Part shown: piece after piece, positions 1 to 20,000 of the stretch | Layout of the letters: every line of letters begins with the position of its first letter | Numbering within the stretch: the first letter of the stretch is position 1 | Origin: an uncultured virus (IMG/VR IMGVR_UViG_3300031992_003405) | Lineage: Duplodnaviria; Heunggongvirae; Uroviricota; Caudoviricetes | IMG/VR virus record: IMGVR_UViG_3300031992_003405 | DNA: 20,000 nucleotides | Direction: 5' to 3' (one strand) | Translations under genes and position numbers: made by a program | The notes under the pieces: model-generated | Database searches by the model: none | What the model was told of the DNA's origin: nothing | What the model saw: the letters and a program-made list of their open reading frames with translations, nothing else

Positions 1-3000
1 ATACAAAATTAAAGTATACAAGATTGAAATAAATTTCTATATAAGATTAGAATAAAATTGTTGAAATCACTTGTAAAGGCATATCCAGGTATGCCAGGAA
101 TAGAAACATTAGCCGAAGGATCTTGTACGATACAAAAAATATTATTTCTATATCGTGAAAATTTATCTATCTTTAACAGAAATCGTTATCGCTAATAAAT
201 ATTTATATTTATAAAGATACAATTAAATTTAATAAATAAATTATATTTAATGATTTTTAATATATTTAAAAAACAAAAAATTTATTTAAGAATTTGGAAC
301 AAAACCGACAGTCTCTGCACTAGCTTTGTAGAACCAGCCATCGTGTCCATAATCTCCAATATTAGTATATACACAGGTAAATTGTTCGCTAAGTCTCAAT
401 CCATTTAAAGGCTCTAAGTAACCTATATTCCAGTTCCTATATAGAGATTTTTTCTCATAATGAACAAAATGCAATAAAATTGAATTATAATAAAATTTAA
501 GTATACAATATTGGAACAAAACCGACAGAACCGGCTGCAACATAATTCTCAGATTGTATAGGAAATAAAGAAGGAAATGTGTTTCTCGTTCCTAGAAAAG
601 TAAAACAAATTGTTGCATACTCATAGTTAATTGTCAGAAATCTTTTCTACCAATAAATATTTATAAAGATATAATTAGATTTAATAAATAAATTATATTT
701 AATCATTTTTAATAATATTTATTATTTTACAAAATTTGGAACAAAACCGAGAGAATGATGACACCACGAACATGCACGATTACCGAAACGATCACTAGCG
801 AATGATATTAATTCAAATCTATTTGCTGTCTCTAGACTCGGAGATCTTTCCCATTAATAAATGAAATATATTTAAATACAATAAAATTGAATTCTAATAA
901 AATTTAAATATACAAAATTAAATATACAAGATTGACGTATACAAGATTGGAACAAAACTGTGATTATGATAAGTCCAAGCATTACCACAACTACCGAGCG
1001 GGTTACCATCACCCCCACCGCATACGTAAATATACCTCTCTTTGGCCCAGCCGCTGGTTGCAGATTTTCCCGGAAATCTTTCTTATTAATAGATTGAGTA
1101 GATTTAAATATAATGATACAAAATTAAAATATACAAGATTAAAATATACAAGATCGGAACAAAACCGAAACTAGCAGACATTGCCATTATTGATGACACT
1201 CGATCTGCATTGAACATGATTCCCTCAAAGTCGACATTATAGCTCATCTTATATCCTAAATTCGCATTGTACATCGACTGGCTCTTGCTCGGAGATTTTT
1301 CCTACCAATGAATTAAAATATATTTAAATGTAATGATAAAATTGAGTGCTAAGTTTTTTTAGAATAAAATCGTGAGAATAAGACGCCTCATAAGAATCCC
1401 AGGGAGAATCTTCTGCATCAGCAGCAGCCTTGCCTCTACGTCCTAGGCAAATACCTTGAGTACGTTTCTCTACTTCCAGAGATCTTTCCCACCAATGAAT
1501 TAGATATATTTTAATATAATAATAAAATTTAATTATATAAGATTAAAGTATACACGATTGAAGTAAACTTCTAATAGAATTTAAATATACAAAATTGAAA
1601 TAGAACCGTCACTAAAATAAAAATGCTCAGTACTCGCAGTAGTATCATAATCATATGACGGATCGTATGTCCATCTCGGACCAGCATCGCCCACACTAGT
1701 ACATTGGTCTATAGTCCGTGCATTTAGAGATCTTTCTTGTCAATAAATTAGATATATTTAAATACAATAAAATTAAATTTTAATAAAATTTAAATATACA
1801 AGATTGGAACAACAAAACCACTACTGCAATGGGGATGAAAACTTCCATATTCCCAAGATTCTGTCATACTAGTTATATAGATAAAAAAATGCTTAAAATT
1901 ATTATAAATACCATTAATTGGATCACGTATAACCAGAAATCTTTTCTATTAAAAGATTAAGTGACTTTAAATATAATGATACAAAATTTAAATATACAAG
2001 ATTGAAGTAAACTTCTAATAAAATTTGGAAAAAAATGGTATTATCATCATTATCACAATGGCCTGAGTTGCCTGACCAAGGAGGTAAACCAATAACTTGC
2101 AGCCTTTTAGGTAGTCGTACATTCACATTAACGTATGGGCTTGGAGATCTTTTTGACTAATATTAATATAAAATTAAAAAGTTTTAATAAAATATAAATA
2201 TATAAAATTTAAGTATACAAGATTGAAATAAATTACTATATAAAATTAAATATACAAAATTTGGAACAAAACCGCAACAATAATGTGCCCTCACACACCC
2301 AGGTAAACAAAATGGATATTCAAAGGAAGGTGCTTGTCGCGTCATTACACACCAGTCTTCATAACTGCTGTAGCCCTGATCATATCTTATTGGAACACGC
2401 GGAGATCTTTCCCACCAATGAACTAGATATATTTAAATATAATATAATGAAATTAAATTCTAAAAAAATTTAAATATACAAAATTGAAGTAAACTCCTAT
2501 ATAAAATATAAATATATAAAATTGGAACAAAACCGACATCTCTCCATACATCACACAAATGTCCCCATGTATCTTTTGGCCATTTCGTGCTACCATAATC
2601 CAAGATACCATCTTCTAACACAAACATAATTGTAGTGTCGTACTTAGGAGTCGGAGATCTTTCCCACTAATGAACTAAATATAATTAAATAACAATAAAA
2701 TTGAATTATATAAGATTAAATATATAAAATTTAAGTATACAAAATTGTGAACAAAATTGAGACTAATATATGCATAATTCATGTGCGAAGCGACGGGAAA
2801 TTTAGAAGGCCATACGCCAACTTCTCCTAGCATTAAAAACGTAATATCTCCCGAGCTAAATGTAGGGCATGGAGATCTTTTTCATTAATAAACTAAATAT
2901 ATTTAAACATAATAATAGAATTCAATTCTAAAAAAAATTGAAACAAAATCGAAAGAAAAAATTGCGAAATCACCACAACTTGACTCAGCGAAAACCTCAT

Positions 3001-6000
3001 ACCTGTGCGCCTCACACAAATAATTTTTATACTGATCACCGCTATTAACTCCCCGATTTCCATCATATCTTGTCGGAAATCTTTTTTTACCAATAAATTA
3101 GATATATTAAAATGTAATAATAAAATTCAATTCTAATATAATCGAAATATACAAAATTAGAATATATAGAATTGAAGTAAATTTCTATATAAGATTAAGT
3201 ATACGAGATTGAAGTAAACTTCTAATAAAATTTGGAACAAAACCGAGACTATGCAATTTATGATCTATGTGATAGATCCACTTGACTTCGCCAGAAAATT
3301 CTTGATTACCAGTCAAGCCAAATTGTCCAATGTTAGAATCAGAGTGCGTGTGATTCGGAGATCTTTCCTAATAATGAACTAAATATAACTAAAGATAATA
3401 AAATTAAATTTTATTAAAATTTAAATATACAAGATTTAAGTATATAAGATAGGAACAAAACCATGGACCATCGAACACCAGTTCCCTCCTTCCATAAAAT
3501 TTACCTGAAAATCGACATAGCTCGCATTCGGAGGTATTGAATACCCGGAAAGCTTATACGAAAATCTTTCCTACTAATAAATTAAATATAACTAAATGTA
3601 ATAAAATTTGGAATAAAACTGTGAATTTTATGACAACGCCAGTTACTATGTTCGTCTCCAGGAAAGCGGTTCTCAATATACGTACCAACGACGTATAAAT
3701 ACTGCATCGGAAACGACGCATCTAATTCTCCAGCTATTAGAAATCTTTTTTATTAATAAATCTAGCATATTTAAATACAATTTTATTATTATATTTAAAA
3801 TCTTTTTTAGAACAAAAACGATAGCAACAAAAGTATGTATACAGTCGCGCAGCCCAGGCTTATTGCTTTTACCTTGTGTAATGGCATATTAACCTTCGTA
3901 AAGCGAGGAGATTTGCAAAAATTTTTCCTACTAATATTAATATATATTAAGATAAAATTAACAAATATTTAATAAAATATAAATATACAAAATTTGGAAT
4001 AAAACCGCTTGGCCTATCAGCATACAATGAGCTTGCGTTAGTCCAACCGCCGTACTCCCACGGGTGCAAAAAACATGGTTTATTATGTGACTGACTCTCT
4101 TTACTCGGAGATCTTTCTCATCAATGAACTAAATATAACTAAAGATAATAAAATTTAAATATATAAAATTTGGAACAAAACCATAAACATCGATGGTATC
4201 AATTGCAGTCGCAAAATAACGCCCTGTAGTACCACGATTACTTGAGTAAGTAAAACGCTTATAAGGTTGCATATCTAAAGAGTCATTTGCGACATCTGGA
4301 TATACGCCCAGAGATCTTTCCTTCATCAATAAATTAAATATAACTAAATATAACGAAATACAATGAAATTGAATTTTAAAAATTTAAATATACAATATTG
4401 AAATAAACTTCTATACAAGATTAAATATACTAGATTGCAATATGCAAGATTGGAACAAAACCGCTTTTCCAACCCGCAGGGCCATACGGATAACTACAAT
4501 ACAGGTTCACGGCAACGTCAATCTTTCCATCGTTCCTCGTCGCACCTACAACGAAATCAAAACCTATGTCACTCGCCCCGAATTCAGCGACCCAAGCCTT
4601 CGTCGGCGATTTTTTTCATCAATGAATTAAATATATTTAAATGAATTTTAATAAAATTTAGACTATAACCCTCAACACAAGATGCATAAATGTTAATAGC
4701 CCTAGCGAAATCGTTGTAAGAACTGTATCCTACTTCGCAAAATCTTAGACTTGTATCAGCTTTAGATACGTCGACTAATGTTTTCGGAGATCTTTTTTTA
4801 CCAATAAAATATAATTAAATACAATAAAATTCAATTTTAAAAATTTAAATATACAAGATTGAAATAAAACCGTGACATTGATAGCATGCGCCCCCAACGC
4901 TAATTCCACGCTCATAATTCGAACTTAAGCCTCCACCACCGTAATAATACACAAGCAACCACCACATATCTTGCCCGGAACTACCAAGTTCCGGAGAGCT
5001 TTTTCACCAATAAACTAGATATAACTAAAGATAATAAAATTTAGAATAAAACTGAGAATATGACTACATACCTTATACTGTCCGGGACGATAATCTCCTT
5101 CCCACGCATTGCCACTATTTGCGATTGGGATATACATGGTGCCTCGAATATTGTCACCATAATTACAGTCCGGAAATTTTTTACATCAATAAAATATAAT
5201 TAAATACAATAAAATTAAATTTTAAAAAATTTTAATATACAAAATTAGAACAAAATCGACGCCATTATCGGTCCAATTACTCACGGCGTCGAAGATGTCA
5301 CATGCTGAATCTTAACATATAAGACCACTGACTTCATAATGGGTAACGTGTTGTAATTTACTCGGAAATCTTTTCCTATTAATATGAATATATATTAATA
5401 TAAAATTAAAAAATTTTAATAAAATATAAATATACAAAATTAAAGTAAACTTCTATATAAAATTAGAATAAAACCGATATTATTCCACGCATTATCAGCA
5501 TTATCAACCCAGTTTAATAACGATACATTAGGAAAATTTGGCGCTGCATTAAACACCCGACTTCTCACTACAGTACTATTACCAGACCATTGATTCGAAG
5601 ATCTTTCTCATCAATAAATTAAATATAATTAAATTGAATTCTACAAAATTTAAGTATACAAGATTAAAGTAAACTTTTATATAAATTGTAAGTATACAAG
5701 ATTATAACAAAACTGTGAATATTATTTACATAATAACAATCAGGCAAATAATAGTAGTTCTTTAAAGGCGTTTTTATTCCATACTTTTCTAACATACAAA
5801 AAGCATATTCCCAACTACCTACATTTAGAGATATTTCCCGTCAATAAATTAGATATATTATGTAATAATTAAATTAAATTCTAATAGAATTTAAATATAT
5901 AAGATTACAGTATGCAAGATTAAAGTAAATTTCTAATAAAATTTGGAACAAAACCGTTAACACGCTGAATTCCCTCGTAATTAGTGTTTGTCCACCCATA

Positions 6001-9000
6001 CCCATAGGCATGGCCGTACCATGTCAGTAAGCAAAATCCCCAACTGGGGGAAGGGTGATTCGGAGATCTTTCCTGCTAATATATATTAAGATAAAATTAA
6101 AAAATTTTAATAAAATATAAATATACAAAATTTAAAGTATACAAGATTAAAATATATAAGATTGAAGTAAACGTAAACTTCTAATAAAATTTGGAACAAA
6201 ACCGATGTATACATTCGCGTAATAAGAGCCACGCAGACCTGGCTCATTGGTCTTCCCTTGTGGCCCGCAATATTGCCCGACATAGAGTCCGTTTTCCCTC
6301 GGAGATCTTTACCACCAATAAATTAAATATATTAAAATGTAATAATAAAATTCAATTCTAAAAATTTAAATATACAAGATTAAAATAAAACCGTGAATAT
6401 AAATTGCCCTGTGATGTTGACTGGTTACCGGGAAGGTAGAAGGAAAATGGTTTGCTTCACCTAGAACACAATAGCGATTGTATTCTGCGAGCTCGTATCT
6501 TGCCGGAGATCTTTCCCACTAATAAATTAGATGTATTTAAATACAATAAAATTTAATTTTACAAAATTTAAATATACAAAATTGAAGTATACAAGATTAA
6601 AGTAAGCTCCTATATAAAATTAAATATATAAGATTGGAACGAACTCGGCGTTATGTGATGGGATGGTAGTCCATCAATCACTATATATGCCGAATCCTTG
6701 ATTAAATTCTACCGGCACGCACGAAAATCTTTCCTACCAATAAATCTAGTATATTTAAATACAATGATAAAATTTTATTTTACAAAGTTTGGAATAAAAC
6801 AGACATCTTCATCTGCATATATACGATAGGACATACACCTGCCATCTACACATAAAGTACCATAATCCCAAGCATCGATCTCTGGCGCATAACTAGATTC
6901 ATAATATTTTTGTGTTGGAGATCTTTCCCACCAATGAACTAAATATAATAAAAATAAATTATGATAAAATTAAAGTATACAAGATTAAAGTATATAAAAT
7001 TAAAACAAAATCAAGACTATCAATACCGTTTTCTCCATATCCACTTCTTGGGCCATCGCTTGCATACCAAATAGATGTGAAATTACTTAGACCATAATTA
7101 CCATAACTATCTTTATACTTTACCAGAGATCTTTTCTGCTAATAAATTAAATATATTTAAATACAATAATAAAATTGAATTTAAATATATTTAAATATAT
7201 AAGATTAAAGTATATAAAATGAAAGTATACAAGATTGAAATAAACTTCTATATAAAATTAGAACAAAACCAAGATCACAAAAGCTGTCTTCACTATGATC
7301 GCCTGCCACACCAGATTTATGTGTCATGATAGTAGACATTTGTGCATAATATCCCTTGCCTGGATATGACCCACTCACTTTAGTCGGAGATCTTTTCTAT
7401 TAATAAATTAAATATAATTAAATACAATAAAAATTGAATTTTAGCAAAATTTAAGTATACAAGATTGAAGTAAAACTTTTATATAAAATTAAATATACAA
7501 GATTGGAATAAAACCGCGAGTTGTAGTGTGTTGATCGTGAAGATGATCATCAATCGATAGGTTCGATGTACCTACACTATGTAGCTCTGCGCCCCACACT
7601 TGCAGATGGCAATAATGACTCATTGACGAATTGTTAGCCGGAGATCTTTCCCACTAATATTAATATATATTAAGATAAAATTAAAAAATTTTAATAAAAT
7701 ATAAATATACAAGATTGGAATAAACTTCTATATAAAATTAGAACAAAACCGTAAGATAGAAATACTCGGTAATTCGCGTACGCGTATCCTGCCGACACTT
7801 CACTATTATACGCATCAGTACCATATACTTTACAAAACTGTATGGTATAGTTAGCGTTCCGAACTGTCATCGGAGATTTTTCCCACTAATGGACGGAGTA
7901 TAACTAAATGTAATAAAATTCAATTCTAATAGAATTTAAATATACAAGATTAAAACGAGCTTCTAATAAAATTTGGAACAAAACCGTTACTAGCCCACAC
8001 AAAACTAGTCTTGGCAATAACATCGCTAACACTGCCGTACGATACCAGCTGGTAATTAAAGTATCCCACAGATGTAAAACATGGGTTGTTATCCTGAACC
8101 CACGGATTGAGTGACGGAGATCTTTCTCACCAATAAGCTAAATATAACTAAAGATAATAAAATTAAATTATACAAAATTTGGAACAAAACCGGCACAAAG
8201 GACGTCCATCGTATATGACGGTTTCTCAAAGCCAAGTCCAAGGACGTCACCCCTACGATGTAACCAGCACCAGTTACCGTACTTCTGCAACCCCTCGTCC
8301 CAAGTCACTGGCACATGCGGAGATCTTTCCTACCAATAAACTGAGTATAACTAAATACAATAAAATTGAATTTTAACAAAATTTAAATATACAAGATAAA
8401 AGTATATAAAATGAAAATATACAAGATTGAAGTAAATTTCTATATAAAATTAAATATACAAAATCAAAGTATACAAGATTGGAACAAAACCGTAACTACT
8501 ATTTACTACAGCATTACCACTACTGCCGAGCGGATTATTGTCACTACCATCGCTTACGTATTCATCTCTCTCTAAGGGCCATCCTACGTATGCATTATAT
8601 TTACCCGGAAATCTTTCTTATTAATAGATTGAATAGATTTAAATATAATAATACAAAATTAAAATATACAAAATTGAACCAAAGCCGTATGAATCTGTAG
8701 TTCTCCAGATGCCGTTGTCCGTGAGATCAATATCATAATTTTGTATGCCAATAAATTCAATCTAAGTCTTGTATCCCAATGCCGGGCGAATTAGTGCCAT
8801 TCGGGCCCTTATGCAGAGATCTTTCCCACTTATAAACTAAATATATTTAAATGTAATAATAAAATTTAATTCTATAAAATTTATAACAAAACTGAAGCTA
8901 TTGTATGAAAACTGTATCTCATTTTCATATCGACTAAAACCTTGCCTGCCAGTATCAGAAGTAACGGATGCATATCCGTTAATTTCGCATCGCTCACACC

Positions 9001-11131
9001 CAGCGAAAAGTAACCTGAATCTGTCTTCGACGGAGATATTTCCTACTAATAAAATATAACTAGCTAAATACAATAAAATTAAATTTTACAAAATTTAAAT
9101 ATATAAAATTAGAGTATATAAAATTGAAGCAAACTTTTATACAAGATTAGAGTAAACTTCTATATAAAATATAAATATACAAAATTTGGATATATAAAAT
9201 TGGAACAAAACCGTTAGATGTAAAATTGTATTTCCAGTTACCTAAATTGTCTATACCATGACTAATAAGAGCACCACCGTTTCCCGCAATCATTATCACC
9301 ACCCACTGCTCATCATGGTTGTTTTGTACTACAGTCAAAGATCTTTTCCACTAATGTTAATATAGAATTAAAAAATTCTAATAAAATTTAAATATATAAA
9401 ATTAAATATACAAGATCGGAACAAAACTGCCAGACTTATGTACGTTCCATTCATTACTCGTATAGACACCATGTAAGTCGGAAATGCGCAACCCGCCATC
9501 ATCAAGGAGTCTATCCAGAGATTTTTTTCACCAATAAATTAAATATATAAGATTGAAGTAAACTTCTAATAAATTTAGAAAAAAACCGTTACTTCTAAAA
9601 TTGAAAAAATGACTAGCTCCATCATATGTGTTATTCCCATATCCACCTAGTTTACACGTATCTGAATCAGAATCAGCTTCATATTTACTCGAATATCTTT
9701 CCTACCAATAAACTAAGTATAATTAAATGTAATGAAATTGAATTCTACAAAATTTAAATATACAAGATTAGAATAAAACCGTGAGAATAATAATGCTGTT
9801 CATAAGCCGCAGATCCTGAATCTCTAGCACTCGGCCAAGCCCAACTTAAATAAAACCCAGGTACACAGCACCAATTTACATAATTATTCATCTCGGGAGC
9901 CAAAGATCTTTTATAATAATATAGAAATAAAATCGATAGTATCATTAATAAACCAATAGCCAGGATCGCTAAGATGTCGTGCACTGGGCCACGCAGCACT
10001 TATTGTAAAAGCTACACTAATACCAAACCATTGATCACCACCAACTTGAAACGGAAATCTTTTATAGAATTAGATATAATAATTATTCAATTGTTTATTT
10101 TAATATCATATTTATAAATCAATGAATAATAATTATAAAATAATATAATTTAAATTAAATCTTGTTTTATTAAATACATTATTTATTAAAAAATTTTTAA
10201 ATATATAATGTTTTTTAATCAAACCACACGTTCGGTATACATGTAATCCATTACATATTCCCAAACCATTTTCTAATATGAAGTGTGGAGAAATGTCATA
10301 CATATTATTATAATTACTGCCAGAATCCTCCACGTTTTGAATAGAAATCTTTATAATAATTTAAATTATTATATTATTATTTGAAAATAAAACCGTCTAC
10401 AAAAAATACCCAATCATAGTCACTTGCTAAAGCTTGTACTGGTCCTGGCCATAAGTGACTAAGAGTTTTATACAAAACTAGAGCAAAACTCTTGTCACTA
10501 CTATCTCTAGCTAGAAATCTTTATAATATAAATATATAATTAAAAAAATTAATTACTTTTTAATTATATAGTATAATTTTAAAAATTGTTTTAGAACAAA
10601 GCCAAAATTTATTATGCCTGCTGCAAAATCTGACCCATCAAAATAGTATCCATAGCCATATCCTATCCGTTTTAATATACAAAAGTCAACTTGGTAAGTT
10701 TTGTCTAGATGCAGAAATCTTTTCTGTCAATGAATATATATTTTTAATCAATTATTATTATAAAAATTAAAATAAAATCTGAAATAAAATTTAAAATAAA
10801 ACCGTGATCATAAGGCGCCTGATCATGATTGGCAAACGATCCACCGCCACCATTCCATTGTATACCAACTAACCTTACTAACATAAATGTCGTACCTACA
10901 TGTTCTGACATTCTCGGAGATCTTTTTTATTAGTACTATTTATTATATAAAATTATTTTTATAAAATTTAAATATACAAGATTGGAACAAAACTAACATT
11001 GCGCCATACTTCGGTTAAGTGTCCCCAAGTATCTTGCGGCCATTTTCTTGAACCAAAATCATGCAAACCATCAGATAGGGTAAAAAGGCCTTCATTGCGT
11101 GTGTTGCTCAGTTTCGAAATGCTTCTATATA
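1..11131 (-). repeat. Array 1: about 51 silent variable-region cassettes (WERSP-[variable]-GFVP) separated by AT-rich linkers
   Basis: On the + strand each unit has a left anchor resembling ttggaacaaaaccg (e.g. 293, 510, 736, 2261, 2522, 3232, 5943, 6191, 7973, 8179, 8479, 9200, 10982). This is followed by a unique, more GC-rich core of ~75-140 bp and a right anchor resembling cggagatctttcccaccaatgaa (e.g. 839, 1477, 2400, 2652, 4106, 6300, 6504, 8318). Read on the minus strand the anchors encode HWWERSP and GFVPN, the residues flanking the C-terminal segment of the gene at 13013-13165. Period ~150-300 bp. The count is by eye, and the array probably continues past the left edge. Confidence 0.95.
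6186..6319 (-). repeat. Cassette identical to the currently expressed variable region
   Basis: 6186-6310 equals 13031-13155 base for base (125 bp), then one mismatch (a6311 vs c13156), then ccaccaat matches again. Encodes ERSPRENGLYVGQYCGPQGKTNEPGLRGSYYANVYIGFVPNF except for the first base of the E codon. Confidence 0.98.
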
Positions 11132-12969: not shown

Positions 12970-13012
12970 AATAGTTTATAAGTATACAAGAGTACAAATA
13001 TACTTAATACCT

Positions 13013-13423
13013 TTAATCAGCCACCATTACAAAATTTGGAACAAAACCGATGTATACATTCGCGTAATAAGAGCCACGCAGACCTGGCTCATTGGTCTTC
13101 CCTTGTGGCCCGCAATATTGCCCGACATAGAGTCCGTTTTCCCTCGGAGATCTTTCCCACCAATGAACGGCAGCGCCGAGATTAACTCCAGTAGCACCAG
13201 AAACAGGTGTATTTTTAGCATCAGCACCGCGAATGCGGTATGAAGCTGCGCTATTAGTAGTATAATAAGCATAACGAGCTTGCTTATTCTTTTCATAGCT
13301 ATTTGCATAGCTACGTTCACCGAAAATCTCAAACTCTGCCATTAAGAAAATATAATCGCTAGTATCATTAACATTACTCTCAGTGTCGGTAGCACCGCCC
13401 ACATTATCCGTATATTTTTTGAC
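13013..13423 (-). CDS. 3' part (exon 2, 136 aa) of a DUF6273/C-type-lectin-fold-like variable protein; contains the expressed variable region
   Basis: The frame of the 129-aa ORF extends upstream as VKKYTDNVGGATD.... The motifs KKYTDN..G, DYIFLMAEFEIFG, YANSYE...Q..YAYY, WWERSP and GFVPNF match my recollection of DUF6273-type phage/DGR target proteins. Joins exon 1 in frame as ...SYIKP|VKKYTDN.... Confidence 0.85.
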   Translation of the reverse strand, partial: VKKYTDNVGGATDTESNVNDTSDYIFLMAEFEIFGERSYANSYEKNKQARYAYYTTNSAASYRIRGADAKNTPVSGATGVNLGAAVHWWERSPRENGLYVGQYCGPQGKTNEPGLRGSYYANVYIGFVPNFVMVAD

Positions 13424-13825
13424 CTGATACTATATAAAATTTTCTTTATTTTTTATATTAATAATAATTTTATTTTACAAAATTTATTTAAAATTAATAA
13501 AAAAATATATTAATTTTAGTAAAATTGTTTAGATTAATAAAAACTTTAAATTAATAAAAATATTAGATTAATTCACTGTCCGTATACTTCATAAAATGCT
13601 TATTATTCTTGCATTTTAGCAATATTTATTATATATTATTTATTATATTTTTTTTATAATATTATATTTAATTATTTAATTTTAATACTTATAATAAATT
13701 CCCTTTTCACTATTATTATAATTATTAGTATTTATACTAATTATTTATATTCATCAATATTTAAAAGCTACTATTAAATTTTCACTTTACTATTATTATT
13801 ACTAATATTGCTACTAATACTTATA

Positions 13826-15259
13826 TTAACTAATAATATATTTTCCACGTTTTTGCAATAATTTTATATATTTATATCTACGTTCCAATTTTTTATTATT
13901 ATTTAATTGTTTTAATTGAAAACAGCCATTAGACCGTAAACTATTTATATAATATACTTGTCCTTTATGTTTTACTAAATCATATCTTCTAAAATTATAT
14001 GTTATATAAGGACATTGATTCTTCCGCTTTTTATTATTTTTATATATTTTATCCTTATATATCTTTCTATTATGATTTCTTACTTTTTTCATTAAATATA
14101 CTTTAGTATCGTTATTACTTCTTCGTAAACATTGATTAGCTATTATTCTTGCATCTATATGATGATCTTTTTCTAAATTATTCCTTTCTCGAATTAATTT
14201 AGTTTCATAGCCATATGTCTTTTCTATTTTCAGTTTTACTGATACACCTTTGGCGTCCGAGCATGCTCGGAAACCTACTTCATATCCTAATTTTATTAGT
14301 TCTTTATATATTCTATCCTTAAGCATATTTAATCTCGTATTTTCTTTATATTCTTTTATTTTAAATTTTATTTTTTTATTATTTTTTAGATATTCATGTA
14401 CTTGTTTATGACAATGTTCACATAAAGTAATTAAGTTTTCTGGTACATTAGTGCCGCCTTGAGACTTAGGTTTTATATGATGTACGTGTAATTTTATATT
14501 ATCTTTTTTTAAAATATCTAAAGATTTCTTACATTTTTGACAAGTATAATTATCTCTTTTTCTTACATAAGATTTAATATTTTCTTCATGATATAATAAT
14601 CCTTTTTTATAAGATTTAACCTTATCTATTTGCATATTAAATTGTATTAATTCACTTTTTAAGGATAAATTAGATAGATTATTATTATCAATAATATTAT
14701 TAGTATTAATAATATTATTATTACTTATATTATTACTTATATTATTACTTATATTATTATTCTTTAATTTACAAATATTAAAATTATTATATTCATATCT
14801 TATTTTATCTATATGTACATATTTATTAAAGAATTTAATAATATTAATATAAGTTAATAAGCTAGCTTGCATAGATGGTGGAATCCATCCATCTTTTTGT
14901 TTTCTATATATCTTTTTTCTATTATTCCACCTAGGAGGTCTATATCTTAATCTATTCCTTCTATTACGTCTAGCATTTCTTCTGGCTTCTAGTAATTTAG
15001 GTATATCTGTTCTTTGTTCTAACTGTGCCTCAAAGAGGACACGTTGTTTAGTAGTAATAGAAATACCAATTGTTTTGCCAGGATCAATGCCTATAGTAAC
15101 ATCTTGAAGTTTAGGATCATCGATTTGATAATTGAGTTTAATAGTGAAAGGAAAAAATTTAACGACTTTAGCTAATTTCTTTTTTAATAATATTCTAGCT
15201 TTAGCAGGATGACAAGGCATAAGCCTTGTACCATCTTTATTAAAAACAAAAACTATAAT
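13826..15259 (-). CDS. iscB: IscB RNA-guided endonuclease (IS200/IS605 OMEGA; RRXRR/PLMP, split RuvC and HNH)
   Basis: N-terminus IIVFVFNKDGTRLMPCHPAKARILLKK (PLMP-like); RuvC-I IGIDPG; Arg-rich bridge helix RRNARRNRRNRLRYRPPRWNNR; RuvC-II IRYE; HNH RDNYTCQKC..LHVHHIKPKSQGGTNVPENLITLCEHCH; TYGYETK; RuvC-III HHIDARII. The frame is open upstream of the ATG at 15220. AAGGAG (15272-15267) lies 7 nt before ATT 15259, suggesting a non-ATG start. Confidence 0.92.
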   Translation of the reverse strand: MIVFVFNKDGTRLMPCHPAKARILLKKKLAKVVKFFPFTIKLNYQIDDPKLQDVTIGIDPGKTIGISITTKQRVLFEAQLEQRTDIPKLLEARRNARRNRRNRLRYRPPRWNNRKKIYRKQKDGWIPPSMQASLLTYINIIKFFNKYVHIDKIRYEYNNFNICKLKNNNISNNISNNISNNNIINTNNIIDNNNLSNLSLKSELIQFNMQIDKVKSYKKGLLYHEENIKSYVRKRDNYTCQKCKKSLDILKKDNIKLHVHHIKPKSQGGTNVPENLITLCEHCHKQVHEYLKNNKKIKFKIKEYKENTRLNMLKDRIYKELIKLGYEVGFRACSDAKGVSVKLKIEKTYGYETKLIRERNNLEKDHHIDARIIANQCLRRSNNDTKVYLMKKVRNHNRKIYKDKIYKNNKKRKNQCPYITYNFRRYDLVKHKGQVYYINSLRSNGCFQLKQLNNNKKLERRYKYIKLLQKRGKYIIS

Positions 15260-15369
15260 AATTGCTCTCCTTTATTAAGGATTAAGTTATTATAAATAAT
15301 ATATAAAATGGGATATAACCCAAATTTATAATCAATTACTTATATATATTTTTTATGAATATATATAGT

Positions 15370-15610
15370 TATATAATCTCCCACGCTAAAATTATTCTGA
15401 GTTTAATAATTATATCACTGTTAACCTATAAACTGTTTAAATATAATCCGCAGATTTCTAACTAATAGCTAGGCGCTTTTTTAGCGCATCATTTTAAATA
15501 TAATTTAAAATGAAAATAAAGCTTCAAGCTGGAAGAACACTTAAAGATGCCTATATATTTCAGAATAATGTAGTCTATATTAGTATAGACTAAAGCTGAT
15601 GAATCAATCT
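15370..15610 (-). ncRNA. omegaRNA / HEARO-like RNA scaffold upstream of iscB
   Basis: Minus strand reads cagctttagtctata-ctaa-tatagactacattattctgaaatatataggcatctttaagtgttcttccagcttgaagcttt...ttaaacagtttataggttaacagtg...aaactcagaataattttagcgtgggagatt. This follows the HEARO/omegaRNA motif order as I recall it (AGACTACRTT, ATAGGCA, CCAG..AGCT, TTAAACAG, ACAGTG, GCG.GGGAGA). Long-range pairing ttattctga/tcagaataa (15560-15568 with 15392-15400). Position directly 5' of iscB is as expected. Boundaries approximate. Confidence 0.75.
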
Positions 15611-15657
15611 AAAAATTCTATTGATCTAAAAATTCTATTAATCTAAAAATTTTATTA
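15606..15657. repeat. Three ~17-bp tandem repeats at the 5' edge of the omegaRNA-like scaffold
   Basis: aatctaaaaattctatt / gatctaaaaattctatt / aatctaaaaattttatt. Confidence 0.7.
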
Positions 15658-15871
15658 GTTTAAAAAATTATTTTATTAACTTTTAAATTAATTATTAATA
15701 TTATTGAAAAATAGTTTTATAAAATATTGAAAATTTTATATTAATTAAGCTTTATTATTGAAAAATTATAAAAATAATTATTAAATTTATAATAAAGCAT
15801 AGATTATGTCATTATTATAATTAATAAAATATATTAATTATATTAAATTTTCCATTAATAAATTAATGTAC

Positions 15872-15934
15872 ATTTATTAATCGTTAAATATATATTAATA
15901 AAAAAACATTTTATATTAATATATATTATTGATA
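15872..15934. promoter_or_regulatory. Copy 1 of a ~62-bp direct repeat with an internal inverted repeat
   Basis: atttattaatcgttaaatatatattaata-N14-attaatatatattattgata; near-identical to 16908-16969. Confidence 0.55.
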
Positions 15935-15993
15935 AATTTTATAGAATATATCAATAATTATTATACTTATTAATAAACCCTAATATAAAATTA

Positions 15994-16818
15994 AGGTTTA
16001 ATATAAGACTTCCATGCTGGATCAATAGCGCTATGAAATTGCTTACAAATAAATGTACGCATATATGACATCTTCCAGCCACCAGAGTTACTATTAGTAA
16101 GATTCATACGGAAGCCAGCATCACTACCGGTTAGATATAATCTGTTATCAACAAATGCAATATCACCAGCAACATGTGCATCTGCGTTATCTCTTGTGAC
16201 GCGACGGCTAAGACTGAAATGAATAGAATTCTTACCATTAGTTTCTACAGTCGCATTATGATCAAAGCCGAGAATATATGCGCAGAAATTAGAATTATTT
16301 GAAAAAGTCTTATATCCAACTGTACCATTAAGCTTAATAGCTGCAGTATTACTACCTACACCGCCAGCATAATTAGAATTTTCAGGACCCCAATAGTTCT
16401 TATGTAATCCAGCATTAAGAATTGCTTGAATCTGTGCGGGTGAACATTGAGAAAGAACATGAGGAATGTTAGAAACGCTACCGGTATAAGTGTTAGGACC
16501 AATTGTAACTGTACGAGTCATAGCAGCATAACCATTAGTGGCATCTGCACCTACAGTAATAGTTAATGTTGCTGTAGTTGATGCTTCACTATAGCCGGAA
16601 GTTGTAGAAGTACGTTTAACAACGACTTCCTGATCATTAATAACTTCACAAGTATAATACGTGTTGGGAGTAACACTAGCACTAAGAGTGCCTTTACTTT
16701 CTGTTGAAACCCAGACAAAAACTTCATCATCAAAGTTATTAATATACGAAGGAATTACTGCAATTGAAGGATTCCAGGAAGCACCTGCATCCAAGCCGAT
16801 TACTTTTCCTAAAGCCAT
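15994..16818 (-). CDS. 5' part (exon 1, 275 aa) of the variable protein; T/S/V-rich, probably beta-sandwich N-terminus plus the start of the DUF6273-like domain (putative tail fibre, adhesin or receptor-binding protein)
   Basis: 275-aa ORF with higher GC than its surroundings. Motifs YILGFDHN, IHFSL, FRMNLTNSNSGGWKMSYMRTFIC and AWKSYIKP resemble the N-terminal half of DUF6273-like domains. The stop at 15991-15993 is the first codon of the insertion. Confidence 0.85.
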
Positions 16819-16907
16819 ATTATTTTCTATAATATGTTAATCTTTTTATTTATAAAAAGTATAAAGACTATCTAATTTATTTCATTTTTATTAAAAATAA
16901 TTACTTT

Positions 16908-16969
16908 ATTTATTAGTCGTTAAATATATATTAATATAAAAAAATTTTAATTAATATATATTATTGATA
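16908..16969. promoter_or_regulatory. Copy 2 of the ~62-bp direct repeat, ~90 bp upstream of the target gene start
   Basis: atttattagtcgttaaatatatattaata-N12-attaatatatattattgata; contains the 13-bp inverted repeat aatatatattaat/attaatatatatt. Confidence 0.55.
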
Positions 16970-17516
16970 TATTATTTAATTAATTTTTATAATTATACCA
17001 ATAAATTTTATATTAATGAGGTACTTAATATGAATTTAATAATATTTTTATGATAATATTTTTGTAATAATACCTCTTTTTTATTAATTTACTAGTTAAT
17101 TAGTTAATTAATTAACTAGTATAACAAATTTTATATAAAAATTAGTTTTTATATAGAAACATATTTCTAGTAAATATGTTTATTTTTTCCATTTATTTTA
17201 ATAGTAAATATTTTTAGTATTTTATTATTAAAACATAATAGAACAATAAACGATATTTACATTTTAATAATATATTTAATTTATCATTTTATTTAAAAAG
17301 AATTTTTTCTATAAAAAATGAAAAATTTCAGGGGTTGTTAAAGTAAACGCCAAGTTTTATTAATAAACACCAAACTTTTTTAATAAATTATGAAGTTTTT
17401 TAATCAATATTAAATTATTTATTATGATATAAATATTAATTATTTGTCGCGAAAAGAATTTTAAATATTATATTAAAATGAACAAATATTAATAAAATAT
17501 TTACTAAAATGAACAA

Positions 17517-17969
17517 TTATATTTTTAATTTTTTAATAGTGGTTATATTTATAGATTGAATTGTTGTAATGGCATTAGAAGTATCTTTAATAATTTTTAA
17601 TAATTTATCAAATATTTTACTAGATTCTTCTACGGATTTAAAAACAGTATTACCTTCATTAAGCATTTCGAAAAGAAAGATTACTTCAATTTTGAGATTG
17701 AATAATAATTGATTAGCTTTAGTTAATAGATTTTGTTTTTCTTTGAATTGTTCCATGGATAAGTCTTTAGATAATTTAATATATTCCGATTGAAGGCAAT
17801 AATTAGTAATTTTTTGCATTATATCTAATATATTATTAGTAATAACATATCTATAAGATTTAGGCATATGTCTAATAGTTTTATTAATCATTTTTCTTAA
17901 TTTAAAAGATAATTTAATATAGTCTTTGTCTAGCTGATAAGTTTTTAAGAATAAATCAATTACTTTCAT
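17517..17969 (-). CDS. avd: Avd-like (DGR accessory variability determinant) four-helix-bundle protein, ~150 aa
   Basis: Basic, apparently all-helical protein with the pattern L...I...I..MPKSYRYVI...I.......I......I.......Q...KQ..L.KAN..L..L...V....E, resembling the Avd/four-helix-bundle (F/M)PK..RY.L..I signature. Start placed at ATG 17969 after GAAAGGA; the ORF track starts at 17987. It is adjacent to a gene with a DGR-target-like C-terminus. Confidence 0.62.
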   Translation of the reverse strand: MKVIDLFLKTYQLDKDYIKLSFKLRKMINKTIRHMPKSYRYVITNNILDIMQKITNYCLQSEYIKLSKDLSMEQFKEKQNLLTKANQLLFNLKIEVIFLFEMLNEGNTVFKSVEESSKIFDKLLKIIKDTSNAITTIQSINITTIKKLKI

Positions 17970-18016
17970 TAATATTAATCCTTTCATTTACGTTTTTAAA
18001 TAATTAATAAAAAAAT

Positions 18017-18042
18017 AAAGCATATATATCGATATATGCTTT
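18017..18042. other. 11-bp inverted repeat between the avd-like start and array 2 (terminator or operator)
   Basis: aaagcatatat-atcg-atatatgcttt flanked by A and T tracts. Confidence 0.5.
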
Positions 18043-18079
18043 TTATATTAGAAGAATTTTTCTAGTTAGAATATATATT

Positions 18080-20000
18080 TAAGATCTCAGCAAACTACAG
18101 GTGATGCATTTTATCCGATTCAATGGTGTCGTTTAGCTTATGAAGTTGAAGGTCATTATCATGAGATAGAAGCAGGTGGTGCGTACAATGACTGGAGAAT
18201 ATGCGCTAGTTTCGGTTTTATTCTTTATAAAATTTACAAATTTATTAATAATAATGATCTTCAAATAGATGTGCAAATACGATGAGTCAAAATCATATGT
18301 TATGGTTACATTATGGTTATAAATATGGAGTAACCCAATATAGTGACAATGCATATTGGGTTAACAATTTTATTGTAAATTTTATATTAATTATAATAAT
18401 TTATTAATAAAAATTATCTCCGACGAAGAAAGCTTACTATCTTAAGGGTTATTGTACGATGGGTGATGCTGGTCCGCATCAAACATATGATCCATCTTAT
18501 GATTATGATACATCGGCAATGCTTGACTGGAGTATTGTTGATTACGGTTTTGTTCCAAATTTTATTAATAATTATTTTAAAGGCTTTTTATTAAATTTTT
18601 ATAATTCTAATTAATATTAATTTTTATAAAGATTTCCGTGGAAAGATCTGAGATTTGGAACTGAACCCGTGCAGGCATTTTTAGAACCGCAAGGACATGG
18701 TAATGACGACGTTCCGTTCGTTATCTGGATGTTTGCTTCTATCCACAATTCTGGTTTTGTTCCAAATATATTTTTTTATATTATAAATATATAATTAAAA
18801 AGATCTTTGGATGTATGTTATATATCGGCACATGCACAATGGCATGGTTTTGGTATTGGTTATGGACAAACTAATTTTTATACTCCTGTAAATGATGATT
18901 ATTCTGGTGGAACGAGAGGCGGTTCTTCGATTATTAATTTTGGTTTTATTTTTAATTTTATTAATAACTATTTAAAAACTTTTTATTAAATTTTTATAAT
19001 TCTAATTAATATTAATTTTTATAAAGATCTTTAGCAACATACCCTAATCCAAGTCAATATCCTGCGATAGAGATTGGAGATATAGGCGTACATGCTAGTT
19101 ATGAGCCGAAAAATGACTATGATACAACTAGTATTTTTGAATACAGTATACACAGTAATGATTTTGTTCCAATCTTGTATATTCAATTTTATATACTTCA
19201 ATTTTGTATAAATCTATTAAAAATTAAATTAATATAATACAAATGTTATAAATAATATAAAATCTATTTATTAATAATAAAAGATCTCTGAGAAAAGATG
19301 ATGGTAATATAGAAACTCGATCTACGTCTGGAACTTTAACTCCTAACACTGGTATTAATCATCATGATTATACGATGTATCAAGATAACGATTTCTTTTA
19401 TCACGATTTTATTTTTAATGGATTAAAAAAATATTTTTAATTTTGTATAAAGATTATATTAATTCAATAAATAAGATCTTCGTGTAATTCGCAATATGCT
19501 TACAGTGCTACACGATACTGGTGCAGGCAGTCACATGATATAGCTGATAACTTTGCGATAGCTCGCAAGGGAATTGACGAATATGAGACATCATCTAACG
19601 GTTTTATTCTAATATGTAAATAATAAAACAAATTTTAATTAATACTGAAATTTATTTTAATTCTATAATTAATCTCCGAATCATAACAGCATGGATCTTA
19701 ATATATTTATACCTCCCGTTTCAGCATTAGGTATAGAAGGGCATGATGATACTAGTGCATATGATTGGAAATATTTTCATTATAATGAGTTTCGGTTTTA
19801 TTTATGATAAAATCTAAATATTTTCAAAATATATAGTAAATATTCGTGACAATGATAAAAACATATTATAAAGATCTCTGACTTGGTTGACAAACTGGAT
19901 TGGAATTGCTTTTGGTACGATTGGAGATGCAGGACAGTTTTATAGTTATGATTCATCGCATGATTATGACGTTTCTGCCGTATTTGAGAGTGCTGTATGG
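18080..20000 (+). repeat. Array 2: about 10 variable-region cassettes in inverted orientation, truncated by the window edge
   Basis: Units start with aagatct-like anchors (18081, 18255, 18415, 18628, 18799, 19023, 19281, 19473, 19671, 19871). They end with cggttttgttccaa-like anchors (18213, 18358, 18545, 18752, 18941, 19159, 19404, 19599, 19793). Example translations: SPTKKAYYLKGYCTMGDAGPHQTYDPSYDYDTSAMLDWSIVDYGFVPN and RFPWKDLRFGTEPVQAFLEPQGHGNDDVPFVIWMFASIHNSGFVP. Confidence 0.92.

Follow-up and report, generated by a model that had tools for sequence, protein, structure and literature searches.

How a single phage-type structural gene comes to be flanked by long arrays of short, unexpressed copies of one of its own segments, and what keeps those copies readable, is the question raised by a 20,000-nt stretch of DNA from an uncultured member of the Caudoviricetes (IMG/VR record IMGVR_UViG_3300031992_003405; this whole stretch is referred to below as the window). 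The window is extremely AT-rich (16–35% GC per kb) and belongs to a contig of at least 92 kb. An independent metagenome contig of 48.6 kb (L002) is 100% identical to window positions 13057–20000 and extends 6.8 kb further, and most of the counts given here refer to the window together with this extension (26.8 kb in total). The carrier is likely a phage, judging by a phrog match, by relatives that are phages with diversity-generating retroelements (DGRs) and by Atlas neighbours that are mostly viral. As argued below, the repeated units probably make up a library of silent cassettes, each of which would enter one expression site as a complete copy through non-reciprocal recombination guided by the anchors.

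The units form two arrays. The left one (48..11131, minus strand) holds 50 anchor-defined cassettes arranged head to tail in the orientation of the expressed gene, with a unit spacing of 151–305 nt, and it probably extends past the start of the window. The right one lies on the plus strand, inverted with respect to the gene; it starts at 18079, runs to the end of the window at 20000 and on through positions 1–6818 of L002 (at least 8.7 kb) and adds a total of 30 anchor-defined cassettes. The archive takes up about 70% of the 26.8 kb, and the arrays have between them just three features that encode protein, each on the minus strand: an open reading frame (ORF) of 156 aa, a structural gene in two halves and an IscB gene. 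A first-pass annotation, made from the letters of the window, had described the left array; this description did not extend to the second, inverted array, nor did it mention that the expressed gene is split.

Read on the coding strand, each unit consists of an AT-rich leader whose last codons, ...CAT TGG TGG, are decayed, a 5′ anchor (GAA AGA TCT CCG, encoding ERSP), a core of 16–47 codons, a 3′ anchor (GGT TTT GTT CCA, encoding GFVP) and a linker of 12.5% GC with one to five copies of a 15-nt repeat. Cassettes were defined by Hamming distance to GAAAGATCTCCG (ERSP) and GGTTTTGTTCCAA (GFVP), with at most four mismatches in each, the two anchors 60–240 nt apart, the best pair kept and the reading frame ignored. 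This rule overlooks some units (for example 10981–11131, and others in several large gaps of the plus-strand array), and a few of the 80 pairs that it recognised may be false (for example 18798–18869 and 188–48).

Are these units still readable? Between positions 286 and 11131, where the first-pass annotation had reported roughly 25 cassettes, all but one of them open and in frame, the anchor scan recognised 49, so that the original figure was an undercount. Forty-five of them are in frame, and 42 are both in frame and stop-free. The retention of frame that had been claimed is thus borne out, while the single exception grows to seven: three cassettes with a stop in the core (6733–6635, TGA, the case already noted; 5374–5246, TAA; 3927–3808, TAA) and four that are out of frame (10353–10214, 9042–8882, 8825–8675 and 2153–2026). 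The three translations quoted at the time (850–737, 2411–2262 and 6072–5944, minus strand) are correct, and the decayed CAT TAG TGG was found where it had been placed, at about 2665–2673.

Across the window and L002, 74 of the 80 cassettes are in frame (binomial p = 1e-28 against an expectation of 1/3). With the six out-of-frame units excluded from the stop counts, 70 of the 74 remaining cores are stop-free, in agreement with what had been proposed from the left array. When these cores were put through 500 dinucleotide shuffles, 6.9 ± 2.5 of them were free of stops (maximum 17). Stops are avoided in the anchor frame only (4 in frame 0, against 132 in frame +1, 351 in frame +2 and 110–192 in the reverse frames), and GC content at the first, second and third codon positions of the cores is 0.466, 0.430 and 0.317. 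Every cassette with at most two anchor mismatches is intact (26/26), and 23 of the 29 with five to eight mismatches are still in frame and open.

The immediate surroundings of the cores provide an internal control. The two tryptophan codons 5′ of ERSP are intact in 17 and 15 of the 74 cassettes and have turned into TAG, TGA or TAA in 41 and 34, so that 75 of these 148 flanking TGG codons are now stops, whereas the cores hold 85 intact TGG codons and 4 stops among 2,808 codons. The four codons that precede ERSP contain six G/C sites, which are retained at 0.20–0.53; for the G/C sites within the anchors the figure is 0.61–0.84, except for the first G of GAA (0.46). Transitions account for 218 of the changes at the six upstream sites, against 56 others, and anchor decay likewise consists almost wholly of transitions at G/C; the drift of anchors towards A/T, with stops among the products, had been described correctly. 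Neutral sites a few bases away are therefore near saturation while the cores are protected. When loss of G/C was simulated at the flank rate (0.62 per site, from the 12 nt upstream), about 9 of 70 clean cores stayed open (maximum 15 in 300 trials), and rates of 0.2–0.3 per site left 24–34 of the 70 open.

These figures bear directly on the reading that the arrays are dead debris, that is, decaying tandem duplicates of the 3′ end of the gene with no present function. Such a reading would account for the decay of anchors and linkers towards A/T, for the drop in core GC as anchor mismatches rise (from 0.424 at 0–2 mismatches to 0.366 at 7–8; rho = −0.32, p = 0.005) and for the interruption of the expressed gene itself. 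Against this, neutral decay at the flank rate would have left some 9 open cores out of 70 where 70 of 74 are observed, and GC at the third codon position is not lower in the cores (0.317) than in the two halves of the expressed gene (0.21 and 0.29). Most cores moreover resemble one another in neither sequence nor length (the 74 yield 14 related pairs), which argues that they are not simple recent duplicates. No trend of anchor decay with distance from the gene was seen in either array. The debris reading is thus disfavoured and extremely improbable. Conversely, frame retention, avoidance of stops in frame 0 alone, GC by codon position and the TGG control together strongly support a constraint on the cores, one that operates at the level of protein because it is frame-specific, as had been suggested initially.

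The cassettes are not genes in their own right, since an in-frame ATG ahead of the nearest upstream stop is present in 3 of the 74 and a stop lies within one codon of ERSP in 55. Their expressed counterpart is one minus-strand gene (13013–16818) for a DUF6273 protein (C-type-lectin-like), divided by an insert into two halves. The N-terminal half (15991..16818, minus strand, 275 aa) comprises an immunoglobulin (Ig)-like domain and the first half of the DUF6273 domain. The C-terminal half (13013..13429, minus strand; listed ORF start GTG at 13402) reads VKKYTDNVGG...WWERSP, then a variable region (VR), then GFVPNFVMVAD*, the sequence of the ORF being ...AAVHWWERSP-RENGLYVGQYCGPQGKTNEPGLRGSYYANVYI-GFVPNFVMVAD*. 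Together with both anchors the VR occupies 13031..13155 (minus strand), and over all of these 125 bp it is identical (125/125) to a donor cassette of the left array at 6186..6310 (minus strand). It ends where the two differ by G/T, on the 5′ side of AAAGATCT, and by G/A, on the 3′ side of CCAAATTTT. The locus thus contains a single expression site and 80 silent, non-expressed donors of one segment.

Because the donor is still present in the array, the event that produced this identity would have been a copy and not an exchange; both the event and its direction, from donor to expression site, are suggested by this one case. The earlier proposal that only the cores enter the protein holds to the extent that one cassette does sit in the protein; the word 'only' goes beyond that case and is consistent with the data. 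The approximately 11–20 nt that bound the cassettes match the expression site, and in the best cassettes the shared stretch reaches about 23 nt on the 5′ side and 21 nt on the 3′ side. A copy of the core of the linker repeat (CTCTTGTATACTT, coding strand) is found at 12980–12993, some 40–50 nt 3′ of the stop codon of the expressed gene, which suggests that the units began as copies of the expression site together with its 3′ flank. The end of L002 falls inside the VR (L002 position 13762 corresponds to window position 13057), as expected of assembly at a repeated or polymorphic, variable site.

What kind of protein carries this segment? The N-terminal and C-terminal halves match collinear ranges of phrog_37900, and the C-terminal half reaches 23.3 bits with PF19789 (DUF6273) against a cut-off of 23.5 (E = 6.6e-5). 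According to precomputed annotation, PF19789 is present in P0002, a homologue of 422 aa that is 64% identical and not split. Its AlphaFold2 model, built from 43 aligned sequences (pLDDT, the predicted local confidence measure, 81.3), shows an Ig-like domain at residues ~20–110 and a large domain at 121–422. Residues 121–422 match residues 32–285 of 9qa6_A (Z = 13.3, rmsd 2.7, 178 residues aligned), a region that is named DUF6273 in PMC12402451. A direct match of the P0002 model to Mtd or TvpA was not obtained, a search of the PDB with the P0002 sequence gave no match, and Foldseek matches were dominated by the Ig-like domain. In the model, the fold is like that of a solved DUF6273 domain with the VR at its C-terminal end, the variable segment itself being predicted with low confidence (pLDDT 38–69).

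In two reports, DUF6273 is described as a C-type-lectin-like domain that is targeted by DGRs in gut phages and exposes its VR on the surface (PMC10743442; bioRxiv 10.1101/2024.10.15.618418). The initial description of the cores as binding loops fits this homology, given that the same segment is the DGR variable region in relatives and that the published VR is surface-exposed (PMC10743442). Of the residues in which the cores had been called rich, Y is enriched relative to the constant part of the protein (8.5 versus 5.6%), as are W, D, H and C; G is barely enriched and S is not.

WWERSP and GF[VI]P are invariant in all eight expressed homologues that were aligned (8/8). A profile of the C-terminal half run against 1.84 billion representative proteins returned 1,038 family matches, and since only five of these (P0010, P0002, P0008, P0007 and P0011) span the whole profile, the GFVPNF clade is small. 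In two members of this clade, P0009 and P0010, the constant part differs by one substitution and one two-residue insertion, and the segments between WWERSP and GFVPNF (39 and 45 aa) are unrelated, a pattern that whole-cassette replacement would produce. No convincing match was found between the VRs of homologues and the cassettes (best E = 7.6e-4 over 18 aa). As a separate observation, P0007, a homologue of the C-terminal half, ends in ...GFIPNFFTLEFYYYI, like a cassette linker and unlike the usual ...GFVPNFVMVAD; a single crossover with a cassette in direct orientation, or an assembly join, would produce such an end.

The relatives of this gene raise the question of whether a DGR is at work here as well. 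In a set of 74 related metagenome loci (L003–L076), 26 have the WWxRS... segment twice, no more than 3 kb apart, as a pair of VR and template repeat (TR), and 23 of these 26 bear the DGR signature (at least 80% of differences at adenines of the downstream copy). An ORF with reverse transcriptase (RT) motifs was present at 19 of the 74 loci; at L017 the gene order is target, avd, TR, RT. The VR of these relatives spans WWERSP to G-x-A-P-x-F (also G-x-[AV]-P-x-F), which are exactly the cassette borders seen here. Nevertheless, a tblastn search of the window and L002 with the L017 RT and Avd proteins gave no match (for RT at E up to 10), and in the same 26.8 kb there was no template repeat and no adenine mutagenesis, donor and VR showing no adenine-specific differences. 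The protein belongs to a family of DGR targets, yet the locus fails the tests for a DGR because no RT was found in the 26.8 kb, because donor and VR are identical and because core lengths vary.

An RT supplied in trans could, in principle, use the arrays as a bank of many template repeats, by DGR-like or by non-mutagenic retrohoming. Membership of the protein in a DGR-target family and the coincidence of cassette borders with TR/VR borders point in that direction, and so does a predicted helical ORF of 156 aa (17517..17987, minus strand) directly upstream of the gene, which has a language-model feature score of 0.92 to viral clusters labelled 'Avd-like' and 'four helix bundle'. The latter is a lead only: comparison with the Avd proteins of the relatives gave a BLASTP E value of 13 and an hhalign probability of 0.1, and Pfam returned no bAvd match. 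Together with the failure of tblastn to find RT or Avd in the 26.8 kb, the perfect identity of donor and VR in spite of their many adenines speaks against retrohoming, as does the range of core lengths (16–47 aa), whereas DGRs hold length constant. We consider this explanation quite unlikely.

Copying from a silent library accounts better for the combination of protected cores and decaying borders. The cassettes would serve as a promoterless, start-less archive for the variable tip with which a phage-type protein (Ig-like plus DUF6273), a receptor-binding protein or an adhesin, makes contact, and the whole core would be copied non-reciprocally from a cassette into the expression site. If the recipient's own anchors primed the copying and stayed in place, only the core would be newly synthesised; a possible route is synthesis-dependent annealing induced by breaks that fall on or close to the two borders. 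Mutations in donor anchors would then lower the efficiency of copying and never enter the protein. Retention of the recipient's anchors would explain why cores are selected while anchors, WW codons and linkers drift to A/T, and it fits the observation that anchors invariant in expressed homologues are lost in many cassettes with open cores (Pro in 35, Glu in 40 and Gly in 25 of 74). The archive would replace, in this lineage, the mutagenic retrohoming of the protein's relatives.

A number of points weigh against copying from the library. Switching within this population is putative, no event having been observed, and the 26.8 kb contain no additional nuclease, no RT and no recombinase by which such copying might be driven. 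Anchors of 11–20 nt are short for RecA-type recombination, and simple homology-dependent conversion poorly explains open cores beside five to eight anchor mismatches (23/29). The gene is split in mid-domain by 2.6 kb, so that a working protein from the expression site is only putative. The difference between P0009 and P0010 might reflect the divergence of two strains and not a switch, and the dN/dS ratios of ten related cassette pairs (0.27–0.78) are weak and biased evidence because the pairs were picked by protein similarity.

Comparative support for the mechanism was likewise lacking in the contig scans, which found no arrays with these anchors elsewhere. No other locus among the 74 relatives had more than one cassette-like unit, and the closest two (L003 and L004, with a GFVP-type VR) are only 1.7–1.8 kb long. 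In viral_contigs the two-anchor pattern had no match, and the 3′-anchor pattern had 64 single, apparently random matches and no array; in genome_contigs the two-anchor pattern gave five single matches in unrelated metagenome-assembled genomes and no array. Protein-profile scans of genome_contigs and viral_contigs returned, depending on the scan, nothing, one GC-rich distant match or nine GC-rich distant loci.

One alternative is site-specific exchange, in which a recombinase encoded elsewhere acts on AAAGATCTCC (with its palindrome AGATCT) and GGTTTTGTTCC and swaps or inverts cassettes, in the manner of shufflons or of Gin, Cin and Min. In favour of such a system are the shortness of the conserved sites, with sharp decay of the DNA immediately beyond them, the open cores next to mismatched anchors and the opposite orientation of the two arrays. 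On the other hand, the ORFs of the 26.8 kb include no recombinase gene, and the left array lies in direct orientation, where recombination deletes and does not invert. The persistence of a donor beside an identical expressed copy indicates a duplicative and not a reciprocal process. Shufflons, furthermore, are not known to be built of units with two different sites, unlike the units here. Site-specific exchange is in our view rather unlikely, and anchor-guided copying from the archive is the reading that we retain.

A further question concerns the insert that divides the expressed gene. This intervening sequence (13430..15990, minus strand, ~2.56 kb) splits the gene between ...SYIKP and VKKYTDNVGG..., which corresponds to residues 281/282 of the P0002 model, at the start of a confident beta-strand (pLDDT 91–94) in the middle of the DUF6273 domain. 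Inside it, the two arms of an imperfect palindrome of about 2 × 140 bp (13432–13569 and 15606–15741), made up partly of 17-nt repeats, flank an IscB element (13576..15599, minus strand) nested in the palindrome centre. The IscB ORF (13826–15220, minus strand) scores 241.9 bits with NF040563 (cut-off 175) and matches RRXRR (E = 5.9e-46) and HNH (E = 1.8e-11). It also carries an Asn/Ile-rich low-complexity insert (NNISNNISNNIS..., window positions 14678–14808) that derives from 3-nt and 27-nt tandem repeats. An omega/HEARO-like RNA (15371–15604, minus strand) covers positions 1–211 of the RF02033 model with 25.6 bits, below the gathering threshold of 83 (E = 0.092), and its fold has a z-score of −3.66. 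At the expected guide position, 17-nt tandem repeats (15605..15666, minus strand) place three and a half copies of a candidate guide directly 5′ of the omega-like RNA. The rest of the insert (roughly 540 bp, ~90% A+T) holds a 129-bp copy of the upstream region of the gene (15835–15961 versus 16873–16996, 80% identical, 93% over 42 nt; the source lies ~55–180 nt upstream of the start codon), which may be a duplicated promoter or regulatory element.

The split, taken to be older than the IscB element, has parallels in homologues. Three homologues of the N-terminal half (P0003, P0004 and P0005, 47–63% identity) stop at the same split position, and P0007 begins at the same Val/Met as the split. 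P0006, P0008 and P0009 suggest a second break ~45 residues upstream (between ...FVDSQLY and TGS.A.FRMNLSN...), and P0006 and P0008, both listed with a longest contig of 15,233, may be two pieces of one gene. The seven codons for VKKYTDN, which lie between a TAG and the GTG at 13402, are in frame and have no start codon ahead of them; that they keep the frame speaks for loss of the insert from the RNA or the DNA rather than for synthesis of two separate polypeptides. An intron was considered as the agent and rejected. Rfam searches for group I and II introns were negative, both over the full length of the window (E up to 1) and at each of the two junctions (E up to 10). The insert is ~90% A+U, and its splice-like borders (U ahead of the 5′ junction, G ahead of the 3′ junction) would arise by chance once in 16 cases. 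Apparent 'IscB' matches in an IStron survey proved to be the names ISCbt4 and ISCbo6.

The position of this element invites the idea of IscB-initiated switching, in which the RNA-guided nuclease cuts the expression site and a cassette repairs the break, as with HO at MAT. A bona fide IscB with an omega-like RNA does lie inside the expression locus, 0.4 kb from the VR. Nevertheless, allowing up to three mismatches, the candidate guide had no match in the window beyond its own tandem copies. Its place within a palindrome is that of an ordinary insertion, IscB homologues of 55–68% identity occur on many other contigs, and the HEARO match falls short of the gathering threshold. Initiation by IscB is accordingly very unlikely, and because its candidate guide matches nothing else in the window, the element is most likely an unrelated, ordinary selfish insertion in the gene.

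A more elaborate, antibody-like form of library copying can also be imagined, a viral 'pseudo-V' system in which programmed breaks at both VR borders would initiate core-only copying from 80 to 100 or more donors, write-back into donors would possibly renew the archive, the DGR would have been replaced, and the insert (palindrome and IscB) would perhaps act as initiator or on/off switch. We regard this full scheme as improbable, though deserving of mention, and in what follows return to the simpler reading of a silent archive copied into one expression site.

Gene conversion from silent cassettes is a familiar process in bacteria and protozoa and at the immune loci of vertebrates, and tail-fibre inversion and DGRs are established in phages. 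Full-text literature searches found no cassette archive for a DGR-type or DUF6273 protein and no silent cassettes for a phage receptor-binding protein. The closest parallels are pilE/pilS of Neisseria, vlsE/vls of Borrelia and msp2 of Anaplasma, in which, as here, one expression site is served by many promoterless, start-less, open donors with short conserved flanks and a hypervariable core, through duplicative copying; in Borrelia vls the donor array also stands beside the expression site in inverted orientation. Unlike these systems, the carrier here is phage-type, the target is a receptor-binding tip and arrays lie on both sides of the gene. At least 80 donors, mostly unrelated and variable in length, are packed into 26.8 kb, and the whole core rather than segments of it would be replaced. 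If the cassettes are used, few single genes would be known to have so large a store of donors, and this one would sit in a virus-type genome. It would also illustrate the extent to which silent DNA can be held open by second-order selection under extreme AT bias.

The locus resembles the chicken Ig pseudo-V genes and lamprey variable lymphocyte receptors (VLR) in having one functional locus, banks of incomplete donors in both orientations, short homologies and a binding surface as the object of diversification. Those systems are somatic and driven by deaminases of the AID/CDA type, whereas no such enzyme was seen here and the change would be heritable. With phage tail-fibre inversion and shufflons (Mu Gin, P1 Cin, p15B Min, R64 Rci) it shares alternative binding ends that lie silent beside the gene, some of them inverted; a further such system, Rin, is reported from Bifidobacterium prophages (PMC6109161). 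Inversion systems swap C-terminal ends reciprocally at one type of site by means of a linked recombinase, in contrast to the internal segment, the two different borders, the retained donor copy and the lack of a recombinase in the window and L002.

The insert, for its part, resembles IscB/OMEGA elements of the IS200/IS605 family (PMC10055086) in having an IscB above the NCBIfam cut-off and an upstream structured RNA that spans the whole HEARO model. It departs from typical members in that no TnpA is present in the window, the RNA scores below gathering and the element lies in a long palindrome inside a split structural gene.

Closest in terms of the protein are the DGRs with DUF6273 or C-type-lectin targets (BPP-1 Mtd; the gut-phage tentaclins, PMC10743442), which act on the same protein family and the same variable segment. 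Unlike in DGRs, diversity here is stored as discrete, length-variable cassettes and not made by mutation. If the cassettes are used, they would amount to a second, independent answer, within a DGR-targeted family, to the problem that DGRs solve, with many tested tips stored in place of one that is mutated. The system would thereby offer a natural test of archive against mutagenesis as strategies for host-range change, and its cores would supply over 70 natural loops, ready for grafting onto a single lectin-like scaffold. In this rumen phage-like genome, with its very high AT content, whole tips are apparently swapped in at the place where relatives employ a mutagenic retroelement.

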